From positions 1,229,153 to 1,293,152 of the forward strand of contig CAVTNP010000004.1 in NCBI GenBank assembly GCA_963736195.1: a stretch of 64,000 nucleotides of DNA, given 5' to 3'. The notes beneath the pieces are model-generated. The model saw nothing but the letters and a program-made list of their open reading frames with translations. It had not been told where the DNA came from and ran no database searches. Source of the DNA: Ignavibacteriota bacterium. Lineage in GTDB: Bacteria; Bacteroidota; Ignavibacteria; Palsa-1295. Below, piece by piece: positions 138 through 47,176 of this stretch. The first letter of the stretch is position 1; every line of letters begins with the position of its first letter. The translations under genes were made by a program, and so were the position numbers.

Positions 138-1046
138 TTATGCGTTACGTAAAATTTTATTTTCAGCTATCGAGAACACCGCAATGATAAAAAACAGCAC
201 ATACGCCACTGCGCAGGCATAGCCCATAGTATCCGCAGATTCAAATGCGTTAGAATAGACCTGATAGACGAGCGTAGTCGTGCGTCCCAGCGGACCGCCG
301 CGCGTCATCACATATATTTCTGTAAACACCTGGAAGCTTTTGATCGTGTTCAGTACCAGCGCAAACAGCAGCGTAGGCCGGATGAGTGGAAGCGTTACCG
401 TAAAAAACTGTTTCCACTTCGGTGTTCCTTCGAGTTCTGCGACTTCGTAATAATCTTTCGATACTCCTTGCATCGCAGCAAGAAACAGCACGGCGTAATA
501 TCCGATCGAGATCCAGATATCCATCGCCATGATCGCTGGCAACGCAAGCCCCGGCTCCAACAGCCAGCCGCGCGCAGGCGCTCCAAAACCCGCCATCGTT
601 AACAGAGAATTAATATAGCCGCCGGAGCCATACAAATTCGTGAAAATGAGCGCAATAACCACAAGGGACGTAACGCTCGGTAAAAAAAGTGCGGATCGGT
701 AAAAATGTTGGAATCGCTCGACCCGTACTAATAGAGCTGCAAACAATAGCGCAAAGATCATCGTAAACGGAATTGTCCCGATCACAAATATTCCGGTATT
801 CAACAATGCCTGCCAAAAGATGGGATCGTGCGCCAATTTTATGTAGTTCCCGAACCCGATCCACACTGTTCGATTCGTCAGCGTGTAATACTTCGTGAAA
901 GAAAGATACAGCGCATAGATCAGCGGATACCCCCAGAATAGCACCAGCGTAATAACCCACGGCGCAAGCAGCAACCAGGTTTCGACGCTCCCCCTCCTAA
1001 AGAAGGAGGGGGAAGGAGGGTGGTTAGGTGTGATAGACATTGCCAC
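138..1046 (-). CDS. Carbohydrate-type ABC transporter permease (MalF/UgpA-like, binding-protein-dependent inner membrane component)
   Basis: 302 aa, multiple TM helices. Permease signature region is TLPLIRPTLLFALVLNTIKSFQVFTEIYVMTRGGP. The ORF starts with GTG at 1046; an ATG lies at 1040. The first ~20 codons are encoded by a GC-rich palindromic element. Confidence 0.8.
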   Translation of the reverse strand: MAMSITPNHPPSPSFFRRGSVETWLLLAPWVITLVLFWGYPLIYALYLSFTKYYTLTNRTVWIGFGNYIKLAHDPIFWQALLNTGIFVIGTIPFTMIFALLFAALLVRVERFQHFYRSALFLPSVTSLVVIALIFTNLYGSGGYINSLLTMAGFGAPARGWLLEPGLALPAIMAMDIWISIGYYAVLFLAAMQGVSKDYYEVAELEGTPKWKQFFTVTLPLIRPTLLFALVLNTIKSFQVFTEIYVMTRGGPLGRTTTLVYQVYSNAFESADTMGYACAVAYVLFFIIAVFSIAENKILRNA

Positions 1047-1075
1047 CCCCTTCCCCCTCCCTCTTTAGGATGGGG
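990..1075. repeat. GC-rich palindromic element copy A (CCCCTCC-loop-GGAGGGG hairpin arms, ~30 bp imperfect inverted repeat around the loop TTAGGTGTGATAGACATTG)
   Basis: Seen directly. Left arm cccctcctaaagaaggagggggaaggagggtgg is the near reverse-complement of right arm ccacccccttccccctccctctttaggatgggg. It shares an ordered set of blocks with the element at 1846-1965. Confidence 0.7.
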
Positions 1076-1722
1076 TGAAAGAATAGATCCGGCGCGAATG
1101 ATTTCAACGCCAGGTACAAACTGCACAGTGGCAAACCTACTACATTATAATAATCGCCATCGATGCGCTCGACGAACACCGCGCCGAAATCTTCCTGAAT
1201 GCCATACGCGCCTGCTTTATCCATCGGTGAACCTGTTGCGATATAGTCCTGAATTTCGTTTATTTCAAGTTTGCGAAAGGTCACGTCCGTTGCTTCGACA
1301 AAGGAGAGTTCCTGCTTCGTTTGGATGTCATATAAAGCGACTCCGGTATAGACCGTATGCGTCCTGCCGCTTAACGCAAGCAGCATGCGCTCGGCATCCT
1401 CCGCATCGACTGGCTTTTCGAGCATCGTGCCAGCGATCCAAACCGTTGTATCAGCGCCAAGCACTATTCCTGGCGCGCCGCTTAATTCCTCTGAAACGCT
1501 CAACTGCTCTGCCACGCTCAACTGCTCGGCCACGCTCAACTGCTCGGCAACGCTCTGTGCTTTATGCCTCGCCAGCCGCTCGACATTTTCTGCAGGTCCC
1601 TGCGCAGGATCCATCACCTCATGCAGGTTCGCCGGACGAATGTTAATCCGCTTTACCCCAAGCAGCTTCACGAGCGAAGCCCGACGTGGCGATTGCGATG
1701 CAAGAAAAAGAGTGCGCAGCAT
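1024..1722 (-). CDS. maf: Maf-like nucleoside triphosphate pyrophosphatase / septum formation protein
   Basis: MLRTLFLASQSPRR...LGADTTV...YGIQ...NVVGLP are Maf family hallmarks. The ORF-track start at 1788 is probably too far upstream; the internal Met at 1722 gives a canonical Maf N-terminus. The gene carries an in-frame (SVAEQL)x3 tandem repeat, and its 3' end reads through a palindromic element. Confidence 0.8.
   Translation of the reverse strand: MLRTLFLASQSPRRASLVKLLGVKRINIRPANLHEVMDPAQGPAENVERLARHKAQSVAEQLSVAEQLSVAEQLSVSEELSGAPGIVLGADTTVWIAGTMLEKPVDAEDAERMLLALSGRTHTVYTGVALYDIQTKQELSFVEATDVTFRKLEINEIQDYIATGSPMDKAGAYGIQEDFGAVFVERIDGDYYNVVGLPLCSLYLALKSFAPDLFFHPILKREGEGGGNVYHT
1497..1550. 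repeat. 18-nt in-frame tandem repeat x3 inside maf (encodes SVAEQL x3)
   Basis: gctcaactgctctgccac / gctcaactgctcggccac / gctcaactgctcggcaac in direct tandem. Confidence 0.85.
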
Positions 1723-1845
1723 TATTCTGCAAAAATACGCTTCTTCTTGCACGGTCTGGCTGAAATGCCCGTCGCGGTGGATTAGCATACATCTGGCACA
1801 GCAAGAGCCAATCGCATAAATCCCTCAATAATATCGAGTTCACTG

Positions 1846-1965
1846 AATCCCCCCGCCTTTCCAAGGCGGGGGTTGGGGGGTGGTTGGGTGCATTTGGATG
1901 AAATTGCGATTGCGGTTAATTCAGGACCCCCCCTGCCCCCTCCTTCTTGAGGAGGGGGAGTAATT
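1846..1965. repeat. GC-rich palindromic element copy B (homologous to 990-1075), in the maf upstream intergenic region
   Basis: It shares ordered blocks with copy A: hairpin ccccgcc-tttccaa-ggcgggg, then ggtggttgggtg (copy A has ggtggttaggtg), then ccccccc tgccccctcc, then hairpin cccctcc-ttcttga-ggagggg. A G-rich run ggcgggggttggggggtggttgggtg is also present. Confidence 0.65.
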
Positions 1966-2044
1966 CAGTGAACGCATCTCATGAATCTCAGTCCGGGTAG
2001 CGGGCACTTTTACCTTCCCGCGCGGCTTTCCATAGCATATCGCC

Positions 2045-4198
2045 ATGTTCCCGAAACGGCTTCTTGTACTCACCCTCTTCGCCGCGCTCGCGGTGATGCC
2101 GCCGTGTGTTCTGCGTGCGCAGTGGGTGCAAACGAATGGGCCTTCGATGGGAAGTGTGGGTTGTTTTGTTTCGAGCGGTACGAATCTCTTTGCAGGAACT
2201 TACGGCGGTGGTGTTTTCCGTTCCACTGATTCAGGGATAACGTGGAAGGCAATTAATAATGGCTTGGCAAAGGGACTTGGAGCAGCGCTTATAATGAGTG
2301 GGAATTATCTATTCGAGGGGTCGAATGATGGGATCGTCTCCCGTTCTAGTGACACTGGAGCAAGCTGGACCGCCTGTCCGATGGGATTGGGGTCGCCTAT
2401 TTATTCATTTGCGGTTAACGGGCAGTATCTCTTTGCAGCGACTTTCGGCAACGGTATCTTTCGCTCCTCCGATAACGGCATGAGCTGGATAGCATTGAAT
2501 ACTGGATTTGATTATGAGCGTATTGAGGCACTTGCTAATCTAGGCTCATATATATTCGCCGCAACGGAAGAGGACGGTATCCTCCGTTCCTCGGACAATG
2601 GTACAACTTGGAGTCACGGCTCTGGGACATATCCCCCATATTACACGATTGCCGTGAGCGGCACGAGCCTGTTTACAGGGACTTCTCCGTCAGGCAGTCA
2701 ATCTGAAATTTCTGGCATATATCGCTCAACGGACAGTGGTTCAAGCTGGATCCAAGTTTGGAATGGTTCGATATCCCCCAATTTAAGGTCACTCACGATC
2801 CAAGCAATCGCCGCATTTGGGACAACGCTTTTCGCAAGCTCCGTGGGCACGGGGATTTACCGATCAACAAATAATGGTGTAAATTGGTATCCGGATACGA
2901 GTGGTTTGCCAGACCATTATATTGTTGACTTTGGCCAGATTGGTTCAAATCTGTTTGCCGGATCCGAATATAATGGAGTCTTTCGATCCATTGACAGCGG
3001 TGCTACCTGGACCGAAAGCAATAAGAATATGGCAAATGCTGATGTTCTTGCTCTTGTCCAGACTGACACTTTCCTTTTTGCGGGTACTGAATATCATGGA
3101 GTTTTTCGTTCTTCAGATGATGGTGAAACTTGGGCCGAGGTGGATAGCGGCTTGACGAGAGGATTTGTAGATGCTTTTGCAGCGCGTGGCGCGACTATCT
3201 TCGCGGCTACTGACGTTGGCGTCTTCGCTTCCTCGGACAACGGTTCAATATGGGTTGCACGCGAAAAAGGCTTGCCTGAACTTCGAGTTTATTCTCTTGC
3301 TGTTAATGACTCCTTTGTCTTTGCGGGAACTGATGGTGGAGGTGTCTTTCGTTCCTCCGACGATGGCAATACTTGGGCGCAAGTTAATAGTGGATTGACC
3401 GACGACACAGTATACTGTCTTGCTATCTATGGGCCATATCTGTTTGCAGGTACCTACAGCACTGACTTCTATACCGGCGGTAGCACACCGGGAGTCTTCC
3501 GTTCGAGCAATAACGGCGCAAGTTGGGTGCAATTTAGTACCGCACTGGTTGATAATAATATATACTCCCTATCTGCTCTCGGCAGATATGTATTCGCCGG
3601 AGGAAACGGAGTTTGCCGCTCCAGCGACAGCGGCGTGCATTGGGAGAGCGTTGACAGCGGATTGACTTATCTTGGGGTGGTCACCCTCAGTGTGGTTGGA
3701 TCTAATCTCTTTGTTGGAACTAACGCCGAGGGCATTTTCCATTCTACTGACAGCGGTTCGACCTGGACACCATTCGATAGTGGTCTCATAAATGAATATG
3801 TATATGCACTTGTGGCAAGCAAAACTAATCTCTTTGCCGGGACGCTTGGTGCAGGCGTTCTCCGCAGTCCCTTGTCTGAATTAGGAATCAGTTCAGTGGC
3901 CCAAACTCCGACGAACAATCCGGCCATTCGTTCCTACCCCAATCCCTTCTCTCAATCCACTGAAATCACCTTCACCTCGCAAGCTGCCGGGTATGCGGAG
4001 GTATCCATCGTGAATATGCTTGGCGTGGAGGTTGCGCGGCTGTTTTCGGGGGAGTTGGGTGCGGGTGAGCACAGCTTTATGTGGGGCAAGCCCACAGGCT
4101 TGCCCGATGGGGCGTATGAGTGCCTCGTCCGCATGAATGGGCAGATGGATGATCGCTCATCCACTGTGCAAACGCTGCCGGTGGTGTTGATGCGTTGA
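2045..4198 (+). CDS. Secreted BNR/Asp-box repeat beta-propeller protein with T9SS C-terminal sorting domain
   Basis: N-terminal signal peptide. More than 12 repeats of ~45 aa are present, each containing S-x-D-x-G-x-T-W (for example GVFRSSDDGNTW, IFRSSDNGMSW). The C-terminus YPNPFSQSTEITFTSQ...ECLVRMNGQMDDRSSTVQTLPVVLMR is a typical type A T9SS CTD. Confidence 0.7.
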   Translation: MFPKRLLVLTLFAALAVMPPCVLRAQWVQTNGPSMGSVGCFVSSGTNLFAGTYGGGVFRSTDSGITWKAINNGLAKGLGAALIMSGNYLFEGSNDGIVSRSSDTGASWTACPMGLGSPIYSFAVNGQYLFAATFGNGIFRSSDNGMSWIALNTGFDYERIEALANLGSYIFAATEEDGILRSSDNGTTWSHGSGTYPPYYTIAVSGTSLFTGTSPSGSQSEISGIYRSTDSGSSWIQVWNGSISPNLRSLTIQAIAAFGTTLFASSVGTGIYRSTNNGVNWYPDTSGLPDHYIVDFGQIGSNLFAGSEYNGVFRSIDSGATWTESNKNMANADVLALVQTDTFLFAGTEYHGVFRSSDDGETWAEVDSGLTRGFVDAFAARGATIFAATDVGVFASSDNGSIWVAREKGLPELRVYSLAVNDSFVFAGTDGGGVFRSSDDGNTWAQVNSGLTDDTVYCLAIYGPYLFAGTYSTDFYTGGSTPGVFRSSNNGASWVQFSTALVDNNIYSLSALGRYVFAGGNGVCRSSDSGVHWESVDSGLTYLGVVTLSVVGSNLFVGTNAEGIFHSTDSGSTWTPFDSGLINEYVYALVASKTNLFAGTLGAGVLRSPLSELGISSVAQTPTNNPAIRSYPNPFSQSTEITFTSQAAGYAEVSIVNMLGVEVARLFSGELGAGEHSFMWGKPTGLPDGAYECLVRMNGQMDDRSSTVQTLPVVLMR

Positions 4199-5271: not shown

Positions 5272-5934
5272 ATGACGGACGTTATTATGCTCTCCGATAT
5301 TCTCGTGCGGAACGGGGAACTCCGTATTCTGGATGGTTTCGCGCTTCGCGTCGAAAAGGGAAGTTTGCGTGTACTGCTTGGTTCCGGTGGCTCAGGAAAA
5401 ACGACGATCTTCAAGCTTTTGTCCGGCGAGATAAACCCAGAGCGTGGTGAAGTGATCGTTGGCGGCGAGGATGTAACCTTGCTTAAGCGTAACAAGCTCG
5501 CAAAATTTCGACGGTCTGTTGGGGTGATCTCGCAGGATGAACCGCCGCTTGAGACCCGAACGGTCGAGGAGCAAATCGCATTACCTCTGGAGATCGATGG
5601 GATGAATGCGGCACGGCGTCATGCGCAAATCGAGGCAGTGATCGAACGGTTCGGATTGCAATCGGCACGGACTCGAAAGCCGGCTTCGCTTTCGAGAAGC
5701 GAACGCCAGCGGGTTGCGATAGCGCGTGCTGTCGTTCGGGAACCGCTTGTATTGCTCGCCGATGAGCCGGCCGCACATTTGGATTTGAAAGATTCGCAAG
5801 AGATCGCTCAACTATTGCTTCATGAAAATCTGCGTGGCATGACGGTTCTGATCGGCACCAGCGATGAGCATTTTGCTTCGAATTTCCCGCAGGCAGCGAT
5901 CCACCACATGGAAGCTCAGAGCTTACAATCTTAA
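5272..5934 (+). CDS. ABC transporter ATP-binding protein, FtsE-like
   Basis: Walker A is GSGGSGKTT. ABC signature is LSRSERQRVAIARA. Walker B is LLLADEP. The run RRSVGVISQD resembles FtsE. No ftsX follows. Confidence 0.65.
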   Translation: MTDVIMLSDILVRNGELRILDGFALRVEKGSLRVLLGSGGSGKTTIFKLLSGEINPERGEVIVGGEDVTLLKRNKLAKFRRSVGVISQDEPPLETRTVEEQIALPLEIDGMNAARRHAQIEAVIERFGLQSARTRKPASLSRSERQRVAIARAVVREPLVLLADEPAAHLDLKDSQEIAQLLLHENLRGMTVLIGTSDEHFASNFPQAAIHHMEAQSLQS

Positions 5935-6028
5935 AATCGACCTTTTTAGCACGGAGCCGAGTAGTCATTCTGGCTGTTCAACAGAATGTCATTCGACGAA
6001 GCAATCCATTGAGATTGCGTTTGCATTT

Positions 6029-13629: not shown

Positions 13630-15231
13630 CTACCGATCCAAGATAAATGTTCCTTGAGATGGGAACGGCCCACGAAGGCGATAGTCACCAAGCATATACT
13701 CATCCACGAAGGTGTAGCGTGCGTTCAATCCGGTGTATTGCCAGATTTCATAGGGCTTTTGCATCGCTTCCATAGGATGGCTATCGATTAGGTCCGGCTG
13801 GCCGAGTGCAATATACACCCGGCCTCGGTCAGTCTTCCATCCAGGTTGATAACTGGAACCGAAATGAGCATTTGCGTAAGCGACGCGCGTGTAGAATACT
13901 TCCATTGGCCGATTTACGTCCTGCGCCGATGATTGTGATCCGTTTGCTGACATGAACTTTCGATTCCAAAACGCGATGATCGCACTACGCTTCTGTTTTG
14001 GGGTACGCGCAGCTAGAAGTGAGTCCTCCTCGGTGGGATCAGCGATAAACCGCAATTGCTCAATTGCTTGATCGAGGTCTTTTGCAGTTTGCGGAATTCC
14101 TCTGGCAATGCGAGCCTGGATGTTTCGATCCACTTTGAGCATAGCTCGGCCATCGAGAGCCGCAGGATCGGTCAGGGTTGTATCGGCAACAGAGGGAAGG
14201 ATATACATGCGTACGGTATAATGGCTCTGCCAAAGTTCATCAAATCGTAGTGGGATCAGAAGCGGCATTTCAGGAATCATTGTTGGTGCCGTCATGCCAA
14301 CCGAGCCGGCGTGGACGGTTCTGAACGTTGAAGAAGATTTCTCGATCACAATCGATTGCTTGGATGCTTCCTCATCGGTCGGTTGTTCCTTCTGCATGAT
14401 TTCAGCTACCACTCCAAGTGTTGAATCGGCAGGCAGATCATACAACTCCGCAAACAAACCCGCATCATGGTTGATACTTCCATCCTGGATGGCACCAGTC
14501 TCGACTATTTCTCCGCCCATTTCAGTGCCGCCGGCGCTTTCAGCCCATTCCGACACATCGGAACCGATCGCCGGAATGATTCTCATACCCTTTCGATCGC
14601 GATAGATCAGAAGATCGCTTACAGAAGTTGTATTCGGCGGGAAGCTCCTTAAAATAAAGGTGACCGTTGTATCAAAATCGCGCCGCGATGACAGATCGTG
14701 TACGTTGAGGCTCATTTCTAATTTTCTGGACGGATATTCACCTCCAGGCAACATCTGAAATGAGATTTGTTCCGCATCTGCTCGCATCGCCGACTTCATC
14801 GCGGGCGATGAAGCATTCATCGTGGGCGATGAAGATGAGGATGCGAACGCTCCGTGCGAAACGCGCGCCTTATGCTCGTCCAATGTTTCGAGCACATTAT
14901 ACGATTCATATCGATCGATCAGAATGCGTTCGCCATCGCGAATGGTGATTCGCACAGCATAATCTGCCACATACTTATCAACCGCATACAGAAACTCTAA
15001 TGAAGCATAGGGCACAGCGATGTAAAGATCCATTCGAGTGCTATCGAAGGTTTTTCCGGAGTCTTCGAAACTGGATCCTTTGAACGCCAGCAGATCGAAC
15101 ATTGCGCGCGGCACTTTAGCTGTCAATTCTTCGCTTCGGAATTCAGATGGCATTCTTCTTTGTGCGATCAGAGATGCCGCATTGCACAAAAAGAGAACTG
15201 CAAGGAATATGCTGAGGAGCCTGCGGGTCAT
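13630..15231 (-). CDS. GWxTD domain-containing secreted protein
   Basis: Signal peptide MTRRLLSIFLAVLFLCNAASLIAQ (Met at 15231). The C-terminal motif GWKTDRGRVYIALGQPD matches the GWxTD family signature. It contains an in-frame palindromic-repeat insertion (SSSSPTMNASSPAMKS). Confidence 0.65.
   Translation of the reverse strand: MTRRLLSIFLAVLFLCNAASLIAQRRMPSEFRSEELTAKVPRAMFDLLAFKGSSFEDSGKTFDSTRMDLYIAVPYASLEFLYAVDKYVADYAVRITIRDGERILIDRYESYNVLETLDEHKARVSHGAFASSSSSPTMNASSPAMKSAMRADAEQISFQMLPGGEYPSRKLEMSLNVHDLSSRRDFDTTVTFILRSFPPNTTSVSDLLIYRDRKGMRIIPAIGSDVSEWAESAGGTEMGGEIVETGAIQDGSINHDAGLFAELYDLPADSTLGVVAEIMQKEQPTDEEASKQSIVIEKSSSTFRTVHAGSVGMTAPTMIPEMPLLIPLRFDELWQSHYTVRMYILPSVADTTLTDPAALDGRAMLKVDRNIQARIARGIPQTAKDLDQAIEQLRFIADPTEEDSLLAARTPKQKRSAIIAFWNRKFMSANGSQSSAQDVNRPMEVFYTRVAYANAHFGSSYQPGWKTDRGRVYIALGQPDLIDSHPMEAMQKPYEIWQYTGLNARYTFVDEYMLGDYRLRGPFPSQGTFILDR
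14786..14836. repeat. Palindromic 18-mer family copies (TTCATCG-N4-CGATGAA) inside GWxTD gene
   Basis: cttcatcgcgggcgatgaagca ttcatcgtgggcgatgaaga. Translated on the minus strand as SSPTMNASSPAMK. Confidence 0.8.
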
Positions 15232-15235
15232 CGCT

Positions 15236-16804
15236 TCAGATAAGCACAGCTTCGGCACATAGCTCATCGTTCTCGACGCCTGTGAAGCGAGCTCCGATCA
15301 TCTCTCCGAGCGCAAGCTCCCTGTTAGACCTTACGCGAACTTCGCCATCGACTTCCGGCGCCTGTGTGGCGGTGCGACCGTAATAGACTCCGCGATCATC
15401 AAGGTCTTTACGTTCGATCAATATTTTGTCTATGGAACCAAGCTTCGTCGCAGATTCTACCTTTAAGAGATTCTTCGCAAGAAATATCTCCGCCTGAATA
15501 TCATACAGACGCGCTTGCCGACGGCGCTTCTCCTCTGCCGGCACCGGATCGCCCAGCGGATGCGCCGTCGTGCCATCCTCTTGACTGTACGTAAAAACAC
15601 CGAGATGGTCAAACTGCATTTGCTCTACGAATTCCTCCAGTTCCTCAAATTCGCGATCGCCCTCTGCAGGATAGCCTGTGATCAGCGTCGTGCGCAGAGC
15701 AATACCAGGAACGCGATCGCGAATTGTGCCGATCAGTTCTTCGGTGGCCCGGCGGGTAATGCCGCGGCGCATCGATTTCAACACAGCAGTCGATGCATGC
15801 TGTACCGGTATATCCAAATACGGAACGATCTTTTCCTCGCTCGCCATGACATCCAGCAGATCGAGTGGGAATTGTGCCGGATACGCGTACATCAGGCGTA
15901 TCCATTCGACGCCCTTTACTTTTGCCAATCTCGAAGCAAGCTTTGCGATACTTCGTTCGCCATAAAGGTCGAGACCATAGTTGGTGGAGTCCTGCGCTAT
16001 GAGAACGATCTCTTTCACGCCCCTCATCGTCGGCGATGAGGTCATCGTCGGCGATGAAATCGTCGGCGATGAGTTTGATGCGAGCATCATGGCCTCGAAT
16101 TCCAGCTCTTCGATGCTACGCGAACGATGGCTGCCGCGCATGATAGGGATAGCACAAAACGAACACGGATGGTCACAGCCTTCCGAGATCTTCAAGTATG
16201 CATAATGGTGCGGCGTCGAAAGCTTCCGCTCCAAAAGTAACGAGTCGTGGGAACCGCAATGCATCGCCGACGATGCTTCGTTACTCGTTACTCGTCCACT
16301 CGTTACTTGTTGGAGTATTTGTTCGAAGTCCTGCGTGCCGAAATAGCGATCCACGACGGGCCCAGCGTTTGCGCTGAACTCCGCCTCCAACTCACTGCGA
16401 TAACGTTCCGATAGACATCCAGCCACATAGACGTTTTTTACAACGCCAGCTTTTTTCAGTTCCAGAGCTTCTAAGATCGCGCTGATGGATTCTTTTTTTG
16501 CATGGTCGATGAATCCGCACGTGTTGATGATCACCGTCTCTGCCGGTGATGCATCCGTTTCCTGGGTGATCTCATCGCTGACGATCTCATCGCTGACGAT
16601 CTCATCGCCGACGATCTCATCGCTGACGATGAAGCCACGCCGCGTAAGCATACCGGCGATCACTTCGGAATCCACCGTGTTCTTCTCACAGCCTAACGAA
16701 ACCACGCAGACCTTGCCTAACGCCCTTGGGCGGTCGTTAATGGCCATCGTGGGGTCTTTAGGCGCCGTCACTGGCAGCGTAGAGTTTGTTGCGCTTATCT
16801 TCAT
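15236..16804 (-). CDS. rimO: Ribosomal protein S12 methylthiotransferase RimO (radical SAM MTTase), carrying three in-frame low-complexity insertions
   Basis: VVSLGCEKNTVDSEVIAGML...INTCGFIDHAKKESI is the MTTase N-domain. The radical SAM core is ISEGCDHPCSFCAIP. A C-terminal TRAM-like region follows. Inserts are VSDEIVGDEIVSDEIVSDEI, VTSGRVTSNEASSAMH and SSPTISSPTMTSSPTM, about 80 extra residues relative to a canonical ~440 aa RimO. Confidence 0.8.
   Translation of the reverse strand: MKISATNSTLPVTAPKDPTMAINDRPRALGKVCVVSLGCEKNTVDSEVIAGMLTRRGFIVSDEIVGDEIVSDEIVSDEITQETDASPAETVIINTCGFIDHAKKESISAILEALELKKAGVVKNVYVAGCLSERYRSELEAEFSANAGPVVDRYFGTQDFEQILQQVTSGRVTSNEASSAMHCGSHDSLLLERKLSTPHHYAYLKISEGCDHPCSFCAIPIMRGSHRSRSIEELEFEAMMLASNSSPTISSPTMTSSPTMRGVKEIVLIAQDSTNYGLDLYGERSIAKLASRLAKVKGVEWIRLMYAYPAQFPLDLLDVMASEEKIVPYLDIPVQHASTAVLKSMRRGITRRATEELIGTIRDRVPGIALRTTLITGYPAEGDREFEELEEFVEQMQFDHLGVFTYSQEDGTTAHPLGDPVPAEEKRRRQARLYDIQAEIFLAKNLLKVESATKLGSIDKILIERKDLDDRGVYYGRTATQAPEVDGEVRVRSNRELALGEMIGARFTGVENDELCAEAVLI
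16020..16080. repeat. Palindromic 18-mer family copies inside rimO (site 1)
   Basis: ctcatcgtcggcgatgag gtcatcgtcggcgatgaa atcgtcggcgatgag. Translated SSPTISSPTMTSSPTM. Confidence 0.8.
16255..16310. repeat. Palindrome gcatcgccgacgatgc plus tandem cgttactcg repeats inside rimO (site 2)
   Basis: gcatcgccgacgatgc ttcgttactcgttactcgtccactcgttact. Translated VTSGRVTSNEASSAMH. Confidence 0.7.
16553..16633. repeat. 15-nt tandem repeat x5 of the palindromic family inside rimO (site 3)
   Basis: gatctcatcgctgac repeated in tandem (catcgctgacgatg is a near-palindrome). Translated IVSDE/IVGDE x5. Confidence 0.85.
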
Positions 16805-16929
16805 GGATGCTCTAACACTGCCGCATACGCTCCGTTCCTATTCCTGCGCGAGCTAATTTGTCCTTTTTTGCCTTTCGATAGATTTTCGGAGGTATATTGT
16901 ATTCATATTATTAATCGTCCCATTAGCCT

Positions 16930-19236
16930 ATGTTGCATCGAAGACTTTTTAGAGACACACGGGGGATCTTTATAGCCGCCGCGCTTTTCGCGCTCATCCT
17001 GCCCGACAAGCTCAGGTCTCAAAATGGGGTCGTGATCAACGAGATAATGTATGCGCCTAAAAGTCCTGAGCCAGAATGGATCGAACTTTTCAACACAGAT
17101 AGTATTGCCATTGACCTGACCAATTGGGAAATTGCAACGGCCTCCAAATCGGGAGTTCTTCCTGACATTACGATAGCTGCTGGAGGTTACCTCGTTATTA
17201 CCAAGGATTCGCTTGAATTAATCACACTCCGGCCCGGGAATTATGCTCCATCGTCGGCGATGGAACTCTCGCAAATCGCGTTGCCGGATCTTGACAATAT
17301 CGGCTCAGAAGTCATACTTCGAAATGCAGCACTTCAAACAATTGATAGCTTAGCCTACCTTCCTTCGTGGGGTGGTTCGACGGGCAGTTCACTCGAAAGG
17401 CGAAATGCGCTTACATCGGCAACTGTCGTAAGCAATTGGGGCACATCCAAAGCAGCGACAGGGGCAACGCCCGGCGTCCGCAACAGTCTTGCTGGGCCAG
17501 ACTCCACACCGGTCATTATTGCTCGGCACCCGCTTGATATAGTTCTGAACGAGGTCATGTTTGCTCCGGTCAGCCCTGAGCCAGAATGGATCGAACTGCT
17601 AAACACGACCCTTGATACGATCAATATAGCAGGGTGGATTCTTTCCGTGCAAGGACACCCGTCCGTTACAATTCCAGCGACAAATACCGTTGTTCCTCCT
17701 GATTCTCTGATCGTCATTTCCGGCAATGATACTGAACTGGCTGCCATTCGAAAGGTGGACATTCAGCGCATCGTTCGTATCAACTTACCTGATCTGAGCA
17801 ATAGTGGCTCGACGCTTGCGCTCCACGATCCAGCCGGGAATTTTATAGACAGTTCCTATTATGAAGGGAACTGGATCAAGGCCGATGGCTTTTCGATCGA
17901 ACGCATCGATCCATACGTCATTGGTTACGAATCCTCGAATTGGAGTACCTGCAAGGATACGAGCGGCTCGACAATTCTTCGCCCAAATTCCGTCCGCATA
18001 CGGAACTATGATCTCGCAGTGACAGATGTTAGCGTATCCGACACGTCTGCTACGGTTACGATCGTCAACATGGGCCTTGATACGATCCATCGCACCGAGG
18101 TTGGTCTTCAAATAGGCTTAGCATCGTCGGTCTCATCGCCGGCGATGCAGGTGCAGTTCACTCCAGTCATTCAGCAATTATCACCCGGTCTTGCAAGTCG
18201 TGACTCTATGCGGGTTTTTTTCGATGTTCCGCAAAACCTCTATGGCCTATTTCCTGCAACGGCCTATATTTTGGATTCTTTAGATGAGAATCCCTTGAAC
18301 GATACGCTTCGGTTTAGTATTGCGCCACTCATCCCGGAAGATAGCCTGGTTATCAATGAGATCATGTTCGATCCGCAGCCAAACGGTTGTGAATGGATCG
18401 AGCTGTATAACCTTTCGGATAAGTGGATTTCGATGGATTCGACGCGGCTACTCACCGGAGAATCACGTCCGGGCGAATATACGCATGTGATCCCACCACT
18501 GTTGATAGCACCCGATTCATTCGGAATTGTCACCGCTAACGATTCCATTTACTCCATCTACCCAGCGTTGGCTGGGCGGAATAGCATAGCGTCCGTTGGC
18601 GCATCTTCGCTCGATCTTGGCAAAGATTCCAGCTCCGTCGTTTTTCAAGCTCTGGATTCTTCCACAATTGATTCCGTTCTCTATCTTAAAACATGGCAGC
18701 AAAGTATTCTTAAAAAGACGTTCGTGGGAATTTCTCTGGAGCGCAAGAACCCGCGCGGCGGGAGCAATGATCCACAAAACTGGCAGGCATCGCTGGATAG
18801 CGCTACCCCACTGGCGCAAAACTCCGTCGATACATCTTCAACAGCAACAACGCCTCCGCTCGGAACCTTATTTACCGCAAGCTTTTCACCGAATCCATTT
18901 TCGCCGGATGGGGATGGCTTTCAAGATCTTAGCATACTCACGGTCCAAACTGGGAATAGCAGCCAATGGGCTATGCAGGTGCAGATATTCGATGCGGGCG
19001 GAAGAATGGTGCGCTCGCTGGTAAATGCGGTATCGGTCTATCAAACCGCAACAGTAACATTCGATGGAAAACGCGATAACGGTCAACCGCTTCCGCTGGG
19101 ATTGTACACAGCTTTAATCCAGCTTACGTCTGCATCGTCGGCTATGAAATCTTCATCGTCGGCTATGAACGCAAGTCCCGAACAGAGCATGAGGCAAGAG
19201 ACGGGCATCGCGATCGCAGGCAAGCGTGCCCACTAA
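16930..19236 (+). CDS. Secreted lamin-tail-domain (LTD) repeat protein with T9SS type B-like C-terminal domain
   Basis: Three LTD cores: VVINEIMYAPKSPEPEWIELFNT, VLNEVMFAPVSPEPEWIELLNT and LVINEIMFDPQPNGCEWIELYN. The C-terminal FSPNPFSPDGDGFQD resembles the FSPNGDGxND type B sorting motif. In-frame palindromic-repeat insertions give SSVSSPAMQ and SASSAMKSSSSAMNASP. Confidence 0.7.
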   Translation: MLHRRLFRDTRGIFIAAALFALILPDKLRSQNGVVINEIMYAPKSPEPEWIELFNTDSIAIDLTNWEIATASKSGVLPDITIAAGGYLVITKDSLELITLRPGNYAPSSAMELSQIALPDLDNIGSEVILRNAALQTIDSLAYLPSWGGSTGSSLERRNALTSATVVSNWGTSKAATGATPGVRNSLAGPDSTPVIIARHPLDIVLNEVMFAPVSPEPEWIELLNTTLDTINIAGWILSVQGHPSVTIPATNTVVPPDSLIVISGNDTELAAIRKVDIQRIVRINLPDLSNSGSTLALHDPAGNFIDSSYYEGNWIKADGFSIERIDPYVIGYESSNWSTCKDTSGSTILRPNSVRIRNYDLAVTDVSVSDTSATVTIVNMGLDTIHRTEVGLQIGLASSVSSPAMQVQFTPVIQQLSPGLASRDSMRVFFDVPQNLYGLFPATAYILDSLDENPLNDTLRFSIAPLIPEDSLVINEIMFDPQPNGCEWIELYNLSDKWISMDSTRLLTGESRPGEYTHVIPPLLIAPDSFGIVTANDSIYSIYPALAGRNSIASVGASSLDLGKDSSSVVFQALDSSTIDSVLYLKTWQQSILKKTFVGISLERKNPRGGSNDPQNWQASLDSATPLAQNSVDTSSTATTPPLGTLFTASFSPNPFSPDGDGFQDLSILTVQTGNSSQWAMQVQIFDAGGRMVRSLVNAVSVYQTATVTFDGKRDNGQPLPLGLYTALIQLTSASSAMKSSSSAMNASPEQSMRQETGIAIAGKRAH
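18121..18150. repeat. Palindromic family copy inside LTD gene (site 1)
   Basis: gcatcgtcggtctcatcgccggcgatgcagg. Translated ASSVSSPAMQ. Confidence 0.6.
19131..19172. repeat. Palindromic family copies inside LTD gene (site 2)
   Basis: gcatcgtcggctatgaaatcttcatcgtcggctatgaacgc. Translated SASSAMKSSSSAMNA. Confidence 0.6.
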
Positions 19237-19254
19237 GAAAGGAGCCGTGCTTCT

Positions 19255-19316
19255 TCACTTAAAAGGATGCCGGTGAGCATCGATGCCGGTAAGCATCAAT
19301 GCTGGTGCATCGGCAC
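19255..19316. repeat. Intergenic degenerate copies of the CATCG...CGATG palindrome family
   Basis: gatgccggtgagcatcgatgccggtaagcatcaatgctggtgcatcggcacgg. Direct repeats of gcatcRatgccggt units are immediately upstream of the bidirectional terminator. Confidence 0.6.
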
Positions 19317-19321
19317 GGATA

Positions 19322-19357
19322 AACCCTTTATAGGAATTGAGAAGCCTATAAAGGGTT
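19322..19357. terminator. Bidirectional rho-independent terminator hairpin between convergent genes
   Basis: Perfect 13-bp stem aaccctttatagg / cctataaagggtt with a 10-nt loop. It is flanked by A/T on both sides, between the + gene ending at 19236 and the - gene ending at 19362. Confidence 0.7.
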
Positions 19358-19361
19358 AGGA

Positions 19362-22300
19362 TCACTTAGCAAGGATAACGCGCTCAGAGCATACCATCCC
19401 ACCACCCTGAAGCCGGATGAAATAAGTGCCCTGCTGCAACCCATGAGCATCGAGGATGATACGATAGGTGCCCTGGCTGAGTGCAGCATCGACGAGTGTT
19501 CGGACGTTTTGTCCGAGTGCGTTAAAGAGCTCCATCTTCACGTTCATCGTGGGCGATGAACCATTCATCGTGGGCGATGAAGCGTTCATCGTGTTGGAAG
19601 CATTCCCGCTGCTGCTCACAGTTGTCGAGTTAATCGTTGGCGATGAAGCGTTCATCGTGGGCGATGCAGCATTCATCGTTGGCGATGCAGGAACTGTATA
19701 TTGGATGAGGGTGGTGCCGTTGAAGGGGTTAGGGATAGCAGGAGCAATGGAAAGGATCTGCGGTTTGGTACCATTGCCAACGATTGTTGCACAGGAATCC
19801 ATGAAGATAACCCTTCCACCATTGAGAAGGCCGGCAGGCGCAGGCAGCGTAATGGAGTAATTGGTATCGCCGTTGGCATCAATGCCATCGGAGACGATGG
19901 GCATCCCGACGACGTCGTTGCCTCCATTATACAAGACCTGCTCGCCGCAAGGATCGGTTAGGACGTTGATATCGGCCTCCTGCACACCGACACTCTTCGC
20001 GGCCTGGAACAGCAGATATCCAATGGTGTCGTGCAGTTGCAGATCGGTCAAGGCTGGGCCTTGTCCACTGATGGTGTACGTTCTGTTCCCGTCGTTAGCA
20101 TCAGAGATATTCCACCCGGCAGCGACATTGGTGCCGGCGGGGTTTACATTGGCGGTTCCGGTAAAGGTCAGGAGGTTACTTCCGGTGATTTGGAAGGTAA
20201 ACTGGAACTGATTGAGATTCTTTTTGCTAAGTGGGAACGCATCGGTGGAATCGAGATAAATGGGAACCTGGAATGCGGCATTAGAAGAGTCGATGCCGGT
20301 TGCATTCATGGCCAAGTTTTGGCGATAGATAGCGATGGGCAGGGTATCGGTATGGAGCGCCTGCACGGATGTGTCAGTGGATTGCCTTCCCCAAACATCG
20401 GACGCTAATAGGGTTCCGGTCGCGGAGGTTTTTGGATCGATCAAACCGAGATCAAACGTAAGAGAAATGGCAGGTGAATCTATTCTGGAATAGTTGGACA
20501 GGTTTTGGGTGAGCGTATCCCAGACGCGATAGATACCCCGGTCATGCCTTCGCAGATCGGTGACCGTAACGGCGATGGAATCGCAGACTATTGAATCGTA
20601 TTTGAGATCGACAAAAGCCGGAGTGGAATCGATCGGGAGGTAATAGGTCCAGCAGAAGGTATCGCCGGCGCAAAGCTCATTTCCGGCGCCATCGACGGCT
20701 TGCCAGCAGATCTTTGCCGGGAGCGTATCGTGCGCAAGGGTATCGGTTACGAACAAGATCACGCTGTCGAATTTGGTGTAGCGCGGGAGTCCTACGCCTG
20801 GGAACGTATCTTCCTTGATGGTATGAATGGAGCTAATGGTACCGTGGTACAGCATGGAATAATTATGGACGTTTGAGAACCAGATCGAGTCAATGCCGTC
20901 GTCATAATTGATACTATCGTGAATATCGGAAAAGAAAACCTTGATGGTGCCGGAAGAGTCTAAGACATAGATAGTGTCATGCGGGCAAAACGTATCTGCG
21001 AGACTATCCTTCACGACTCTTTGCTGATTATTAAAGTTACCCGCACAATCCCATGCTTGGAGCGTAAAACCTGCACTCGCAAACGTATCCCTGATCTGAA
21101 TTCGGAACAAGAATGTAGCTGCGCAGTTAGGTATGGGGCGAAGGCTGCACGTTGTATCGTTAATGCTGTCGATCAAATACAGCGAAGGGTTCGCAATGGG
21201 CCAGCAATTCTGGATCCTCGAGACCAGCACGGAATCCACTCCAGTATCCCAGGGCCTGTCGTCGGTAGCGGAGACGGACCATCCACCTGTCTGTGTCTGG
21301 ACAACCACGAGCGGCGGAACAGTATCGGGGATCGAGCAATAACGGATAGTGTCATACGTCGGAACATTACCAGCAGAATCGATCGCTTCAATAATGATAT
21401 TCCCGCCAAGCGACGACATAGAATCGGTGACGCAAACCGTAAACGTATCCTCTTTCATCCCAAGCGTGAGAGGATGCAACTGCGTGAAATTCATATTCGA
21501 AGAATCGACCACAATGACGGAGCGAAGCCCACCATCGTGCTGAAGACCGGGGAGCGGCTCCTCAATCGAATCCGTAATTACCCATTCACTGCACTGGAAT
21601 TCACATGGCGCTCCCGAAGTATCCGTGTAATTCTGATCATATCGTTTCAGGAGCCGGAAACGAGGCGGAAGCGTATCGAATGGCACCGGAGGCGAACAAC
21701 TTTGAAAGCAGAATGTGTCGTAGCTAACGTTGGCCGCGCAATCCGTGAATGTGAAATAGACGCAGGAAGAAAGCAGGGAATCGACTTGCGTCACAGTTAC
21801 CTTGACGCTATCGGTGTGGTCGCATTGCGGGTAAGTCGCAATGGTAACTTTATCGGCATTCGGAGGAACCACCTTCCATGTGATGGAATCTATGCCCTGA
21901 TCAATCGCTCGGCTATCATAAACGGAATCGACGAATGTCGTATAATTCCCACAATGATTGGTCGCTCCAACGCCGACATGCTTCGTATGGCGTGGGGCTA
22001 AAAGATCCCTTTGCTGACAATCCACGATGATCGGGCAAATATATGGGCTCGAGCTACAGGTGGTAGGACCAACCCCATTTGCACCAACGGAAAACGCAAT
22101 ATCATATATTGAATCGGTGGAGCAATTCGTGAGAACACTCTGAAGAACCGTATCTTCCCATGTAATAGAAGCTGAGCTTTGTCCAAGAATCGAGCCTAAC
22201 CCTCCTGCGCCTGTAAGCTTGTGGTTCTGTGTACTTACGAGAGCAGGCGGAGGATTGGGAGACTCGATCATCACGGGGAGATTTGTGGAAGCGCCCGTGG

Positions 22301-44423: not shown

Positions 44424-44456
44424 GAAAAAAAAACTCCTCTCCCTCTTGTGGGAGAG
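44424..44456 (-). terminator. Rho-independent terminator downstream of the 44489-45496 gene
   Basis: On the minus strand the stem is cctctccc-acaaga-gggagagg, followed by T9 (forward A9 at 44424-44432). Confidence 0.7.
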
Positions 44457-44488
44457 GTTGGGTGAGGGGCCAGCAGTGCTGCGAACAA

Positions 44489-45496
44489 TTATTCCTTCAC
44501 CAATTTAACGGATTGCGCTTCACCATACGCGGTTTGGATGCGCGCGAAGTACGTGCCCGAGGGCAGCCCTGCCAGCGAAAGCGGAACCGATTTATTCCCC
44601 GGCTCGAACAATCCTTCAAACCCGGACCCCGGACCCGGACCCCGGTTCCCGGAACCCGAAACAAGATGCCCCAACACATCGAATAGTTCTATTTTCACAT
44701 ACGCCTCTTTGCTGATGCCAAACGATATTACCGTTCCCTCGCCCGAGGGGTTGGGATACGCGGCGGCGTTGGAGATAATGCCCGGCTGTGGCGTTTCGCT
44801 CACGCTCTCATATAGAAGATGCTTTGCAAGTAGCGTGTCGAGGCCAAGACCAAGCGAAGCGATGGATGGTATGGTGGTATCGAGCGGCACCGACGTGTCA
44901 TTTAGCCAGTCTTCGTATTGAGATGCCCTGGCTCCTTTTATCTCATTTTCTATAAATGGCGTATCGCAGGTAGTGTTCTGAACTAACCATTCATCTATTG
45001 CAAGGGCTTTATTCAGATTAATCCAACCCTGCTCTTCACCACCGGTATCATTCGGGTCGGCAACCTGCATCGCTTCAACACACGCACAGAAGTATTCTGG
45101 GTTCGTCGTATTGAGATAGAGCACCGATTCGAGCCATAGCTGGGCCTGTAGCCAAAGAGAAGTGTCTGACACCTCAAGTGTTTGACGGCTGGCACTGAAC
45201 TCCTGAAACATGGATGGTGCGAAATAATCATTATAGCAAGTTTCGATAAATTTCATGGTTGTATCGTAACATTGCTGCACCTGTCCCGGGCCAGTATAGT
45301 TCCATATCTTAAAGCGCAAGGAATCGCAAGACTCTGTGTCATCTAAGACTTTCCCCATCTCTTCCTCTACCGCCGAGAGATTCCCGCGACCATGGTGTGC
45401 CGGCGCGTTGCCAATCCCTTGCGACTGCGCGAACGAGGAACCGCTCTGCTGCATCAGCAAGAGAAGAAGGGCTATCGTTCTTAATTGATGTACCAT
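44489..45496 (-). CDS. Secreted protein with T9SS C-terminal sorting domain (tandem paralog 1)
   Basis: Signal MVHQLRTIALLLLLMQQSGSSFAQ. The C-terminal ~110 aa AYPNPSGEGTVISFGISKEAYVKIELFDVLGH...SGTYFARIQTAYGEAQSVKLVKE is nearly identical to the 45553-46683 product. It carries an extra SGNRGPGPGSG low-complexity insert. Confidence 0.6.
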   Translation of the reverse strand: MVHQLRTIALLLLLMQQSGSSFAQSQGIGNAPAHHGRGNLSAVEEEMGKVLDDTESCDSLRFKIWNYTGPGQVQQCYDTTMKFIETCYNDYFAPSMFQEFSASRQTLEVSDTSLWLQAQLWLESVLYLNTTNPEYFCACVEAMQVADPNDTGGEEQGWINLNKALAIDEWLVQNTTCDTPFIENEIKGARASQYEDWLNDTSVPLDTTIPSIASLGLGLDTLLAKHLLYESVSETPQPGIISNAAAYPNPSGEGTVISFGISKEAYVKIELFDVLGHLVSGSGNRGPGPGSGFEGLFEPGNKSVPLSLAGLPSGTYFARIQTAYGEAQSVKLVKE

Positions 45497-45552: not shown

Positions 45553-46683
45553 TTATTCCTTCACCAATTTAACGGATTGCGCTTCTCCGTAGGCGGTTTG
45601 GATGCGCGCGAAGTAGGTGCCGGAGGGCAACCCTGCAAGCGATAAGGGAACCGATTTATTCCCCGGCTCGAACAGGCTTTCGAAACCAGCCGAGCCAACT
45701 TCATGCCCGAGCACATCGAATAGCTCTATTTTTACATACGCCTCTTTGCTGATCCCGAACGAGATTACCGTTCCCTCGCCTGTGGGGTTGGGATAGGCGG
45801 CGGCGTTGGAGATAATTCCCGGCTGTGGCATTTCACTCACGCTTTCATAAAACACATGTTTTGCCAGCAGCGTATCGAGCCCATAACCAATTTGAGATAG
45901 CGTGGGAATTGTTGTATCGTAAGGGTAATGAATTCCATCTAACGAATCCTGAGACCACTCCTGAAGTTGCTGCTTTCTAATGCTTTGCCAATCAGCCCAT
46001 TCCTGAGATGAGTCGCAATCAGTGTTAAGAATAAGCCATTTTAGAAATGCTATGCCTCGATTTTGATCCCTGATTCGTTGCTGATTCGTGGTATCATTGT
46101 TGACGTAACCGAAGGATCCAAAGATTTGACCAACGTCGGCGCAAAAATATTCTGGGACAGCGGTGTTCAGATACAGCACCGAGTAAAGCCAGGAACGGTA
46201 TTGTGCGTAAGTGGATGAGTCTTGCGAATAGTTACCGGTCAAGAAATTCTGCACGTCGCTGCCTAAAGCTCCAAACGCCTGCCAGGAATCTGTCCCATAG
46301 GCACATCTATCTATGAATAATTGAAGCGTGTCGTAAGAATCTTGCCACTCCTGAAATTGGGACAACGACTGGCCCACACCAAGAAGATAACTGCAGGTAT
46401 CGTGATTAATAATGGTATCCATGATGGATAGAGTGTTATTGCCATTTTTCTTTTTGGCAGATGTTGCAAGCAAGGTAACCCAATCTTGACACCCCGTTGC
46501 CCATGAAGGGAGAGATGATTTTGCAACTGTGGAACCGGAATCTGCACAATAAGTATTACCATACGCATTTGGCGCACTACTTCTCGCCGACAATTTAGAG
46601 GTATCCAGAATGAATGAGGCGCTGGAAATCGCGAAGACTACCAGAAGGACCAAAGACGCTGTTGTTGAAAGTCTTTTTCTCAT
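45553..46683 (-). CDS. Secreted protein with T9SS C-terminal sorting domain (tandem paralog 2)
   Basis: Signal MRKRLSTTASLVLLVVFAISSA. The central and C-terminal regions are homologous to paralog 1 (LYLNT..PEYFCA.V, DTTIP...GLDTLLAKH..YESVSE.PQPGIISNAAAYPNP.GEGTVISFG). Confidence 0.6.
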   Translation of the reverse strand: MRKRLSTTASLVLLVVFAISSASFILDTSKLSARSSAPNAYGNTYCADSGSTVAKSSLPSWATGCQDWVTLLATSAKKKNGNNTLSIMDTIINHDTCSYLLGVGQSLSQFQEWQDSYDTLQLFIDRCAYGTDSWQAFGALGSDVQNFLTGNYSQDSSTYAQYRSWLYSVLYLNTAVPEYFCADVGQIFGSFGYVNNDTTNQQRIRDQNRGIAFLKWLILNTDCDSSQEWADWQSIRKQQLQEWSQDSLDGIHYPYDTTIPTLSQIGYGLDTLLAKHVFYESVSEMPQPGIISNAAAYPNPTGEGTVISFGISKEAYVKIELFDVLGHEVGSAGFESLFEPGNKSVPLSLAGLPSGTYFARIQTAYGEAQSVKLVKE

Positions 46684-46860: not shown

Positions 46861-46990
46861 AGGCACCCTCTTGGGAAAAGATGAAATATGAAAGATGAAA
46901 GATGAAACGGGGAGGGTTCGGGGAAAAGATGAAATATGAGAGATGAAAGATGAATCCGCCGCGGCGGAGAAAGATGAAATGAGGAAGGGC
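46861..46990. repeat. A-rich short direct-repeat array (AAGATGAAA units, about 8 copies) in divergent intergenic region
   Basis: gaaaagatgaaatatgaaagatgaaagatgaaacgggg...ggaaaagatgaaatatgagagatgaaagatgaatccg...gagaaagatgaaatgagg. It has a two-block structure, each block ending in a G-rich run. Confidence 0.6.
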
Positions 46991-47176
46991 GGGGTTCATT
47001 GACAATCGGCAATAGGTGACTCAAATACTCTACAGTTTATGAATTCCTAATGCAAAAAAAATATTTTGGGAGGCACAAATGGCGAAATTGGCTCAGAATC
47101 GATGGTGTATCGGGAACTCAGAAGAAAGAAAAACGGCACCTATTGCCACAAGAAAGGGGTTGCATGACATTCAAAA

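Follow-up and report, generated by a model that had tools for sequence, protein, structure and literature searches.

Two GC-rich elements, here called copy A and copy B, flank the maf gene in a 64-kb stretch of DNA from an Ignavibacteriota bacterium (contig CAVTNP010000004.1). The whole stretch of 64,000 nucleotides (nt) is referred to as the window, and positions given without a locus name are counted within it. The best explanation for these elements, to which we assign a probability of about 0.7, is that each is an inverted pair, with no gene in between, of a ~34-nt G/C-rich intrastrand triplex motif of class II (BoxC/PIT/TM). This family was named BoxC in Escherichia coli in the 1990s, PIT elements in Hoyne et al. 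2000 and TM or TMECO in Holder et al. 2015 (PMC4666352). In copies A and B, these already known repeats take the form of a new consensus variant, found in a new lineage and with unusual coding overlaps. The variant is considered new because the E. coli TMECO pattern (CCCTCNCCC N3-6 GGGNGAGGG N3 GGGNGAGGG) had no match in the window and its version with 8-nt blocks matched at 44436 only.

In E. coli K-12, the TMECO pattern occurs in 23 copies, always intergenic, and five of the 23 cases are inverted pairs (Holder et al. 2015, PMC4666352). The isolated strand forms a very stable triplex by circular dichroism and nuclear magnetic resonance (NMR), with a melting temperature of 70-82 °C and no quadruplex; a single DNA strand folds into a hairpin and its tail is placed in the major groove (PMC4666352). 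The E. coli motif was linked to small rearrangements between strains and to unstable intergenic sites, it was not detected on mobile elements, and it has no known function (PMC4666352). Earlier work cited by Holder et al. 2015 (PMC4666352) saw neither promoter nor terminator activity for PIT elements, which can block DNA polymerase in vitro. Purine-motif triplexes do not form in RNA (PMC4666352), and therefore the specific triplex structure belongs to single-stranded DNA. The units may act as DNA and not RNA structures, folding transiently when a strand is unpaired. Intrastrand triplex repeats belong to the bacterial repeats that have gone unexplained for longest, and in E. coli they have been tied only to local genome instability.

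Anatomy of the units and the mirror-repeat tail

Copy A (990-1075) and copy B (1838-1973, including an outer inverted repeat) follow one plan, in which a unit on the plus strand, a spacer and a unit on the minus strand are arranged with both tails pointing inward. Each unit consists of a C-rich pyrimidine arm (CCCCCTCC), a 7-nt loop, the complementary G-rich purine arm (GGAGGGGG), a linker of 2-3 nt and a G-rich tail (GGGGGTGG). Unit A1 (990-1023, plus strand) contains the pyrimidine arm CCCCCTCC at 990-997, the loop TAAAGAA at 998-1004, the purine arm GGAGGGGG at 1005-1012, the linker AAG at 1013-1015 and the mirror tail GAGGGTGG at 1016-1023, with one mismatched triplet. It is separated by a 19-nt spacer (1024-1042) from unit A2 (1043-1075, minus strand), which is composed of CCCCATCC (1075-1068), the loop TAAAGAG (1067-1061), GGAGGGGG (1060-1053), the linker AA (1052-1051) and the tail GGGGGTGG (1050-1043). 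Copy B is enclosed by an 11-bp inverted repeat, with its left arm (GTTCACTGAAT) at 1838-1848 and its right arm (ATTCAGTGAAC) at 1963-1973. Between these arms are unit B1 (1849-1883, plus strand; (C)CCCCCGCC, loop TTTCCAA, GGCGGGGG, linker TT, tail GGGGGGTGG), a variable spacer of 41 nt (1884-1924) and unit B2 (1925-1958, minus strand; CCCCCTCC, loop TCAAGAA, GGAGGGGG, linker CA, tail GGGGGGGT(CC)). Unit B1 is a GCC/GGC variant, and in its tail a T faces the C:G inversion where relatives have C. The outer repeat was counted as part of copy B because it also flanks an independent, unrelated copy of the element in an Ignavibacteriae genome (L115). This second copy is located upstream of rlmN and was rejected as an ortholog of copy B.

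Both elements had been noted on either side of maf in a preliminary description made from the sequence, and they stand far above chance expectation. CCCCTCC-N-GGAGGGG was found twice in the window, with none expected from shuffles, and GGTGGTTRGGTG, which comprises the end of the tail and the first part of the spacer, was found at 1019 and 1879 against an expectation of 0.15. A position-weight scan of the window detected exactly four units (990-1023 and 1850-1883 on the plus strand, 1042-1075 and 1925-1958 on the minus strand) with scores of 38-46 bits, whereas the maximum in 20 window shuffles was 4.7 bits. Runs of at least five G or C are rare elsewhere in the window. The palindrome with a ~30-bp stem previously seen in copy A was recovered in a repeat search (30-nt arms, 90% complementary), which also reported the similarity between A and B. 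Folding energies of copy A were -68.9 and -66.9 kcal/mol as RNA (z = -8.0 and -8.6) and -34 and -36 kcal/mol as DNA (z = -7.7 and -9.6), and copy B as DNA gave about -39 kcal/mol; z-scores for the DNA folds of the two copies ranged from -6 to -10. The preliminary description had viewed the resemblance as a shared series of ordered blocks and had delimited copy B as 1846-1965. The similarity and the position were correct, but each copy is more aptly seen as a single unit (pyrimidine arm, loop, purine arm, linker, mirror tail) present twice in inverted orientation, and copy B really extends over 1838-1973 when its outer repeat is included. The mirror-repeat G tail, by which the unit is recognized as an intrastrand triplex motif (BoxC/PIT/TM), had been overlooked.

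The tail mirrors the G-rich arm. After GGAGGGGG comes GGGGG(A/T)GG, and after GGAAGGGG(G) comes GGGGGAAGG or GGGGTTAGG. When C-arm/G-arm hairpins were listed without bias, dozens of unrelated arms agreed with this rule, such as GGGGGAC with the tail CAGGGGG, CGGGAGGGG with GGGGAGGGC, GAGGGAGT with TGAGGGAG, GGAAGGGGG with GGGGGAAGG, AGGGGGAG with GAGGGGG and GGGAGAGG with GG(T)GAGGG. When one representative was taken per distinct purine arm (n = 57), 0.88 of triplets matched the mirror rule (G to G, A to A or T) versus 0.76 +/- 0.012 with permuted tails, and none of 1000 permutations reached the observed value. Mirror repeats cannot arise by templated copying. They can be selected for by a third strand running antiparallel to a hairpin's purine strand, and in motifs of this class the block that mirrors the purine block is a reverse-Hoogsteen one (triplets G*G:C, A*A:T or T*A:T). 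Natural covariation across dozens of arm variants supports a three-stranded fold.

In addition, an ITxF-like search of the window, in which the criteria of Holder et al. were re-implemented (8-nt stems, at most one bad triplet), identified four class II motifs and none in 30 shuffles. These motifs were A1, A2, B2 and a fifth unit; the purine block is purely purine in all four, and B1 has GGCGGGGG, with a C. The fifth unit (44436-44468, plus strand; CCTCTCCC tcttgt GGGAGAGG ttg GGTGAGGG) is single and intergenic, and belongs to the E. coli-like type with eight perfect triplets.

A scan of a genome collection with a degenerate unit pattern yielded at least 120 loci, with matches in at least 13 phyla. 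The taxa included Bacteroidota, Ignavibacteriota/Kapabacteria, Armatimonadota, eight candidate-phyla-radiation lineages, Planctomycetota and Chloroflexota, as well as Nostoc, Proteobacteria, Desulfobacterota, Binatia, Zixibacteria, Acidobacteriota and Nitrospirota. With related copies in relatives and a fifth unit in the window, the suggestion of a dispersed family, as opposed to a local duplication, was supported; the family extends far past Proteobacteria and Cyanobacteria and includes candidate-phyla-radiation bacteria. A profile of 141 instances among the matches listed revealed conservation at 34 positions only, with sharp ends (consensus CCCCCTCCTTnnnAAGGAGGGGGnnGGGGGrGGT), and conserved sites included positions that the search pattern had left free. 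The 169 units detected comprised 104 singlets, 17 divergent pairs and 7 convergent pairs, the convergent arrangement being typical of Kapabacteria/Ignavibacteria loci and some Alphaproteobacteria. Only 7 matches were found in 2.9 million viral contigs, which argues against a phage feature.

Several other repeats were observed in the window and in the collected loci. Heptamer tandem repeats often adjoin units (L083, L114, L125 and L126), and a GATGAAA-type heptamer cluster at 46876-46994 of the window may belong to the heptamer-palindrome class of L125 and L047. A different cross-phylum hairpin repeat, tgtca TTCCCGC gaaa GCGGGAA tgaca (or TCCCCGC/GCGGGGA), is often tandem and unrelated to the triplex units (L025 709-1010, L031 5245 and 5903, L125 12426-12500, L069 5476). 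At 14773-19700 and 16025-16632, the window also contains many copies of a 21-nt periodic repeat (TTCATCGTGGGCGATGAA and relatives) and of 15-nt GATCTCATCGC(T/C)GAC repeats, with inverted sets 512 nt apart among them; they are probably repetitive coding sequence. Direct repeats at 44489-44882 and 45553-45919, ~1 kb apart and 82-89% identical, lie in or beside a 335-amino-acid (aa) open reading frame (ORF; 44489-45496) and may mark tandem paralogs.

The maf-permease junction and units read as protein

The maf gene (1024-1722, minus strand; Pfam PF02545 in homologs) has its likely start at 1722 (MLRTLF) and is followed by an ABC permease gene (138-1040, minus strand; BPD_transp_1 in syntenic loci). 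Copy A covers the junction of the two genes. It encodes the last 17 Maf residues (FHPILKREGEGGGNVYHT), with unit A2 translated as HPILKREGEGGG, and it also provides the start codon and ~19 N-terminal residues of the permease (MSITPNHPPSPSFFRRGSV), in which the complement of unit A1 is translated on the minus strand as ...NHPPSPSFFRRG. The copy A spacer contains both the stop codon of maf (TAA, complement of 1024-1026) and the ATG of the permease (complement of 1038-1040), so that the two ORFs overlap by 17 nt. Copy B is situated where maf and a BNR/type IX secretion system gene (2045-4198) diverge, and has no coding contact if maf starts at MLRTLF. Both elements had been thought to overlap predicted coding ends; this is true of copy A, but copy B is outside the maf coding sequence.

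Synteny of maf and the permease is conserved in relatives. Maf shares 76-78% identity with its best homologs, and those of them that carry a name are 'Candidatus Kapabacteria'. The same kind of element was found at the same junction in L001 and L002, whose arms differ by compensatory TCC/GGA versus GCC/GGC changes. Maf orthologs from element-bearing genomes have 'P.L.K.G.GGG' tails, whereas the closest orthologs have no such tails. The junction is empty in the closest relatives, P0004 and P0001: judged by gene coordinates only, the distance from maf to the next gene is 1 nt on their contigs, and the P0001 permease has 289 aa versus 300-302 aa here. Moreover, the codon before ...ETW is ATG in L001, GTC in the window and TCT in L002. 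The ancestral permease ATG was lost in the window and in L002, and the start must therefore lie in the element. In the element-free locus L134, the native permease N-terminus is an unrelated 20-residue tail. The comparison of orthologs thus traced both the extra Maf tail and the permease start to copy A, supporting the earlier suggestion that such an element can supply coding sequence to gene ends.

These observations are consistent with a scenario in which one element landed at the tight maf-permease junction and another upstream of maf. Maf would have gained a 17-residue tail, and the permease a new start codon and ~19 N-terminal residues, because copy A reads open in the frames in which both genes cross it. 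Copy A may then have been tolerated and co-opted to give a stop, a start and short terminal peptides. The elements would be tolerated passengers and not dedicated regulators, and the units may spread or persist as selfish passengers.

Other repeats were present at the corresponding places in related loci. Palindromes built of the heptamers GTGGATA/GTGGAAA (L125, 6650-6750) and GGCGAAT (L126, 6620-6725) occupy the maf-permease junction, and the permease ORF reads through both. Upstream of maf, at the position of copy B, L125 contains a perfect palindrome with a ~34-bp stem (5895-5975), with GTAG at its start and CTAC at its end (GTAGCGCCGGCGTCCTCGCCGGTCCCCCATCCCC…); it resembles a GTAG-tagged REP-type element. 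Within maf of the window, an 18-bp in-frame tandem repeat is present in three copies (1497-1550) and encodes (AEQLSV)x3. It occupies a surface-loop position where close orthologs have an in-frame triplex-motif unit (…PSPNPSRKRE…) and others have nothing.

Translation of units is not limited to the junction. The mid-maf unit, derived from CCCCTCCCG caag CGGGAGGGG, was found in L125, L126 and the P0001/P0005/P0009 group, and was missing in the closely related P0004. A unit is in frame within recF of L002 (…PPPNEGGGRGVV…), is absent from recF of L125 and is decayed in that of L001. One 1012-aa protein has units at two different sites in L047 and L079, and units were also seen in other phyla in long ORFs whose flanks, by visual recognition only, look like ligA, miaB and sufS. 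Pfam and NCBIfam scans of the translated units matched no family, which argues against an annotated domain of the kind known from Rickettsia palindromic elements (RPEs). For the annotation of metagenome-assembled genomes, units of this kind account for over-extended ORF ends and for odd segments ('P.L.KEG.GGG', 'PPP.EGGGRG' and 'PS..RRG').

Two further cases were noted. A CCCCTCCCG caag CGGGAGGGG unit with a mirror tail is located inside a called gatB (L134, unit at 1940-1975, gene at 1582-3048) of a complete 3.58-Mb genome, apparently in frame. In a Porphyromonadaceae genome, the tail segment (CAGGGGGAGGT) is amplified in tandem after the unit (L105 2892-3040, L120 3650-3721), and a long ORF across these segments gives (GAGGGQ)n.

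DUF559 genes beside the units

Clustering of 760 ORFs located within 700 nt of units, sampled in 8-kb blocks, revealed only one family that recurred across phyla, namely a ~120-aa DUF559 protein (PF04480; Vsr-like nuclease fold, PD-(D/E)XK). The 1.08 Mb of unit-selected loci contained five DUF559 homologs, each within 73 nt of a unit. The association was also seen in a test set of 80 metagenome loci picked for DUF559 alone, 51 of which had a class II motif no more than 150 nt from the gene. Motif density in these loci was about 15-fold higher per kb near the gene (106 in 23.2 kb) than far from it (43 in 138.5 kb). Among the 62 DUF559 genes with at least 200 nt on both sides, 20 had a plus-strand unit upstream and a minus-strand unit downstream, 7 had other two-sided arrangements, 14 had a motif on one side and 21 had none; a convergent layout was thus present in 20 of the 27 genes with motifs on both sides. 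The 20 convergent loci are built exactly like A and B, the gene occupying the spacer; in copy B this place is taken by the 41-nt variable spacer. DUF559 genes bracketed by inward-facing units were observed among loci L135-L214, L033, L085, L091, L110 and L116.

Many DUF559 ORFs terminate within the downstream unit. The E. coli K-12 DUF559 gene, ycjD (L215 8207-8761), ends with …RRSPSP and its stop codon within a decayed BoxC, and is followed by a 3'-end fragment of a second DUF559 gene and then by an intact TMECO/BoxC 170 nt downstream. DUF559 similarity also tracks the type of the adjacent motif (none of 1000 permutations reached the difference), an effect confounded by host phylogeny. The DUF559-repeat link was mentioned neither by Holder et al. 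2015 (PMC4666352) nor in the DUF559 literature searched, and is apparently unreported there.

As part of the favored explanation, full-length versions of the element would have a DUF559 nuclease gene in the spacer of two inward-facing units. Copies A and B would then be related to DUF559 as REPINs are to RAYT genes, being non-autonomous pairs that a trans-acting nuclease copies or maintains. A broader proposal is one that we hold tentatively and at somewhat worse than even odds. In it, a selfish element found throughout bacteria may have the BoxC/PIT/TM repeats as its non-autonomous half and a ~120-aa DUF559 nuclease gene between two inward-facing units as its autonomous form. The nuclease would recognize the folded hairpin/triplex in single-stranded DNA, possibly through the conserved G·A or A·G mismatch, leading to copying or retention of units and of gene-less pairs such as A and B, including in-frame insertion into housekeeping genes. 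With DUF559 as a candidate partner enzyme, the origin and upkeep of the repeats become directly testable, even in E. coli K-12 via ycjD.

Alternative explanations and comparison with known systems

Several observations weigh against the triplex-motif interpretation or its DUF559 extension. The long heptamer-built palindromes of L125 and L126 are unrelated to the units and are located at the very same junction, which could point to selection for a hairpin there rather than neutral insertion. Neither a target-site duplication nor an exact insertion footprint was defined at the junction, the empty junctions being compared by gene coordinates. The purine arm of B1 contains a C, and B2 has only 6 clean triplets. 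Folding was computed for Watson-Crick pairs only, and the triplex of the window variants is predicted from the sequence pattern; an in vivo dimethyl sulfate footprint in E. coli shows no triplex (PMC4666352). With regard to the nuclease, no DUF559 gene is present within the 64-kb window, and no motif was detectable at 21 of the 62 fully flanked DUF559 genes. The association does not indicate a direction, and DUF559 genes could instead home into existing pairs. In addition, the 80 loci are those that best matched an alignment of unit-adjacent genes, and the link may hold for a subfamily only.

Selection for structure is central to an alternative, in our view unlikely, in which copy A is an RNA-level intercistronic hairpin whose ~30-bp stem couples or gates permease translation to that of maf, or shields the upstream mRNA from 3' exonucleases. 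The sense strand does form a very stable fold (-66.9 kcal/mol, z = -8.6), with the maf stop and permease ATG in its apical spacer and the 17-nt overlap. Moreover, five genomes have a long palindrome at the exact junction, drawn from three unrelated sequence families, and this recurrence fits selection for structure and somewhat favors a coupling role. However, the empty junction of the closest relatives, which lacks any spacer, argues against it, and units are also found on both strands, as singlets, within coding sequence and, as with copy B, between divergent genes. An RNA hairpin leaves the mirror tail unexplained. RNA does not form purine-motif triplexes, and the E. coli family showed no promoter or terminator effect (PMC4666352). 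Scans of the window and of 18 related loci against Rfam 15 gave no match at gathering score, and a permissive scan of 900-2100 returned only sub-threshold generic miRNA-hairpin models.

It is very improbable that A and B are a conventional miniature inverted-repeat transposable element derived from an insertion sequence (IS) and moved by a transposase that recognizes terminal inverted repeats. The 30-bp inverted ends of copy A and the 11-bp outer repeat that copy B shares with L115 would suit such an element, but 104 of the 169 units are partnerless singlets, no duplication of a target site can be seen, the ORFs clustered beside units gave no associated IS-like gene, and the cross-phylum sequence conservation is unlike IS-specific ends. 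The preliminary description had suggested a REP/MITE-like family as one possibility, and a REP/REPIN family mobilized by RAYT (IS200/IS605-like Y1 transposase) is likewise dispersed and multi-copy, with short palindromic units whose inverted doublets can fold into either one long hairpin or two small ones. This identity is very improbable: the 141-unit profile contains neither a GTAG/CGTC-type tag nor a conserved flank outside positions 1-34, the mirror tail is absent from REP definitions, and DUF559 was the sole recurrent neighbor family among the 760 ORFs from 8-kb blocks, where no RAYT gene and no transposase-like family recurred. The proposed G-quadruplex or terminator acting on transcription is the least probable of these explanations. 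G runs and a strong hairpin between genes are present, but the prediction found no canonical quadruplex pattern (one strand with four G3+ tracts joined by loops of 1-7 nt) at A or B, neither copy has a T tract or overlaps a terminator-like site, and the E. coli motif is a triplex and not a quadruplex by NMR (PMC4666352). Thus, the observation made in the preliminary description was confirmed, and its interpretation was partly supported.

Other identities were rejected. A sequestered Shine-Dalgarno/anti-Shine-Dalgarno hairpin (AAGGAGG/CCTCCTT) was dropped as the cause of cross-phylum conservation because many arm variants without these sequences retain the mirror tail. CRISPR solitary repeats, attC sites and retron or ribozyme motifs were rejected on anatomy.

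Among known systems, BoxC/PIT/TMECO repeats have the same one-strand order of pyrimidine arm, loop, purine arm, short loop and mirror purine tail (class II), and they are likewise G/C-rich, about 33-37 nt long, multi-copy, present on both strands and often arranged as inverted pairs. The DUF559 association shown here is a difference from the account of Holder et al. 2015 (PMC4666352). The consensus of A and B (CCCCCTCC / GGAGGGGG / GGGGG[A/T]GG) also falls outside the TMECO pattern, and the host is a Kapabacteria-like genome. Unlike the always-intergenic E. coli copies, units of the window overlap gene ends, and in relatives they are in frame within recF, maf and other genes.

Like the units described here, REP/REPIN elements with RAYT genes are short structured units that form inverted doublets folding into a long hairpin, and they persist vertically at orthologous sites. 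Both systems have a single small gene flanked by inverted units as a candidate partner. However, the triplex unit has a mirror tail and no tetranucleotide tag, its candidate partner is a PD-(D/E)XK/Vsr-like protein and not a Y1 transposase, and mobilization by DUF559 is a proposal from co-location.

RPEs, associated with Ogata et al. in 2000, are reportedly inserted in frame in protein-coding genes and translated as extra peptide segments. They are 100-150 bp long, AT-rich and restricted to one genus. Palindromic repeats are read in frame as protein in both cases, but window-type units are 34 nt long, G/C-rich and present in many phyla, and the two show no sequence relationship (no NCBIfam or Pfam match of translated units). 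Finally, the small dispersed repeats (SDRs) of Nostoc, associated with Elhai et al. in 2008, are said to be structured, 20-35 nt in length and often located beside heptamer tandem repeats, and they reportedly recur at sites already holding other small repeats. To our knowledge, SDRs have not been described as having a triplex-type mirror tail. Compared by description and not by sequence, the units described here share with SDRs their very small size, structured nature, recurrence at sites that other small repeats already occupy, and heptamer neighbors.

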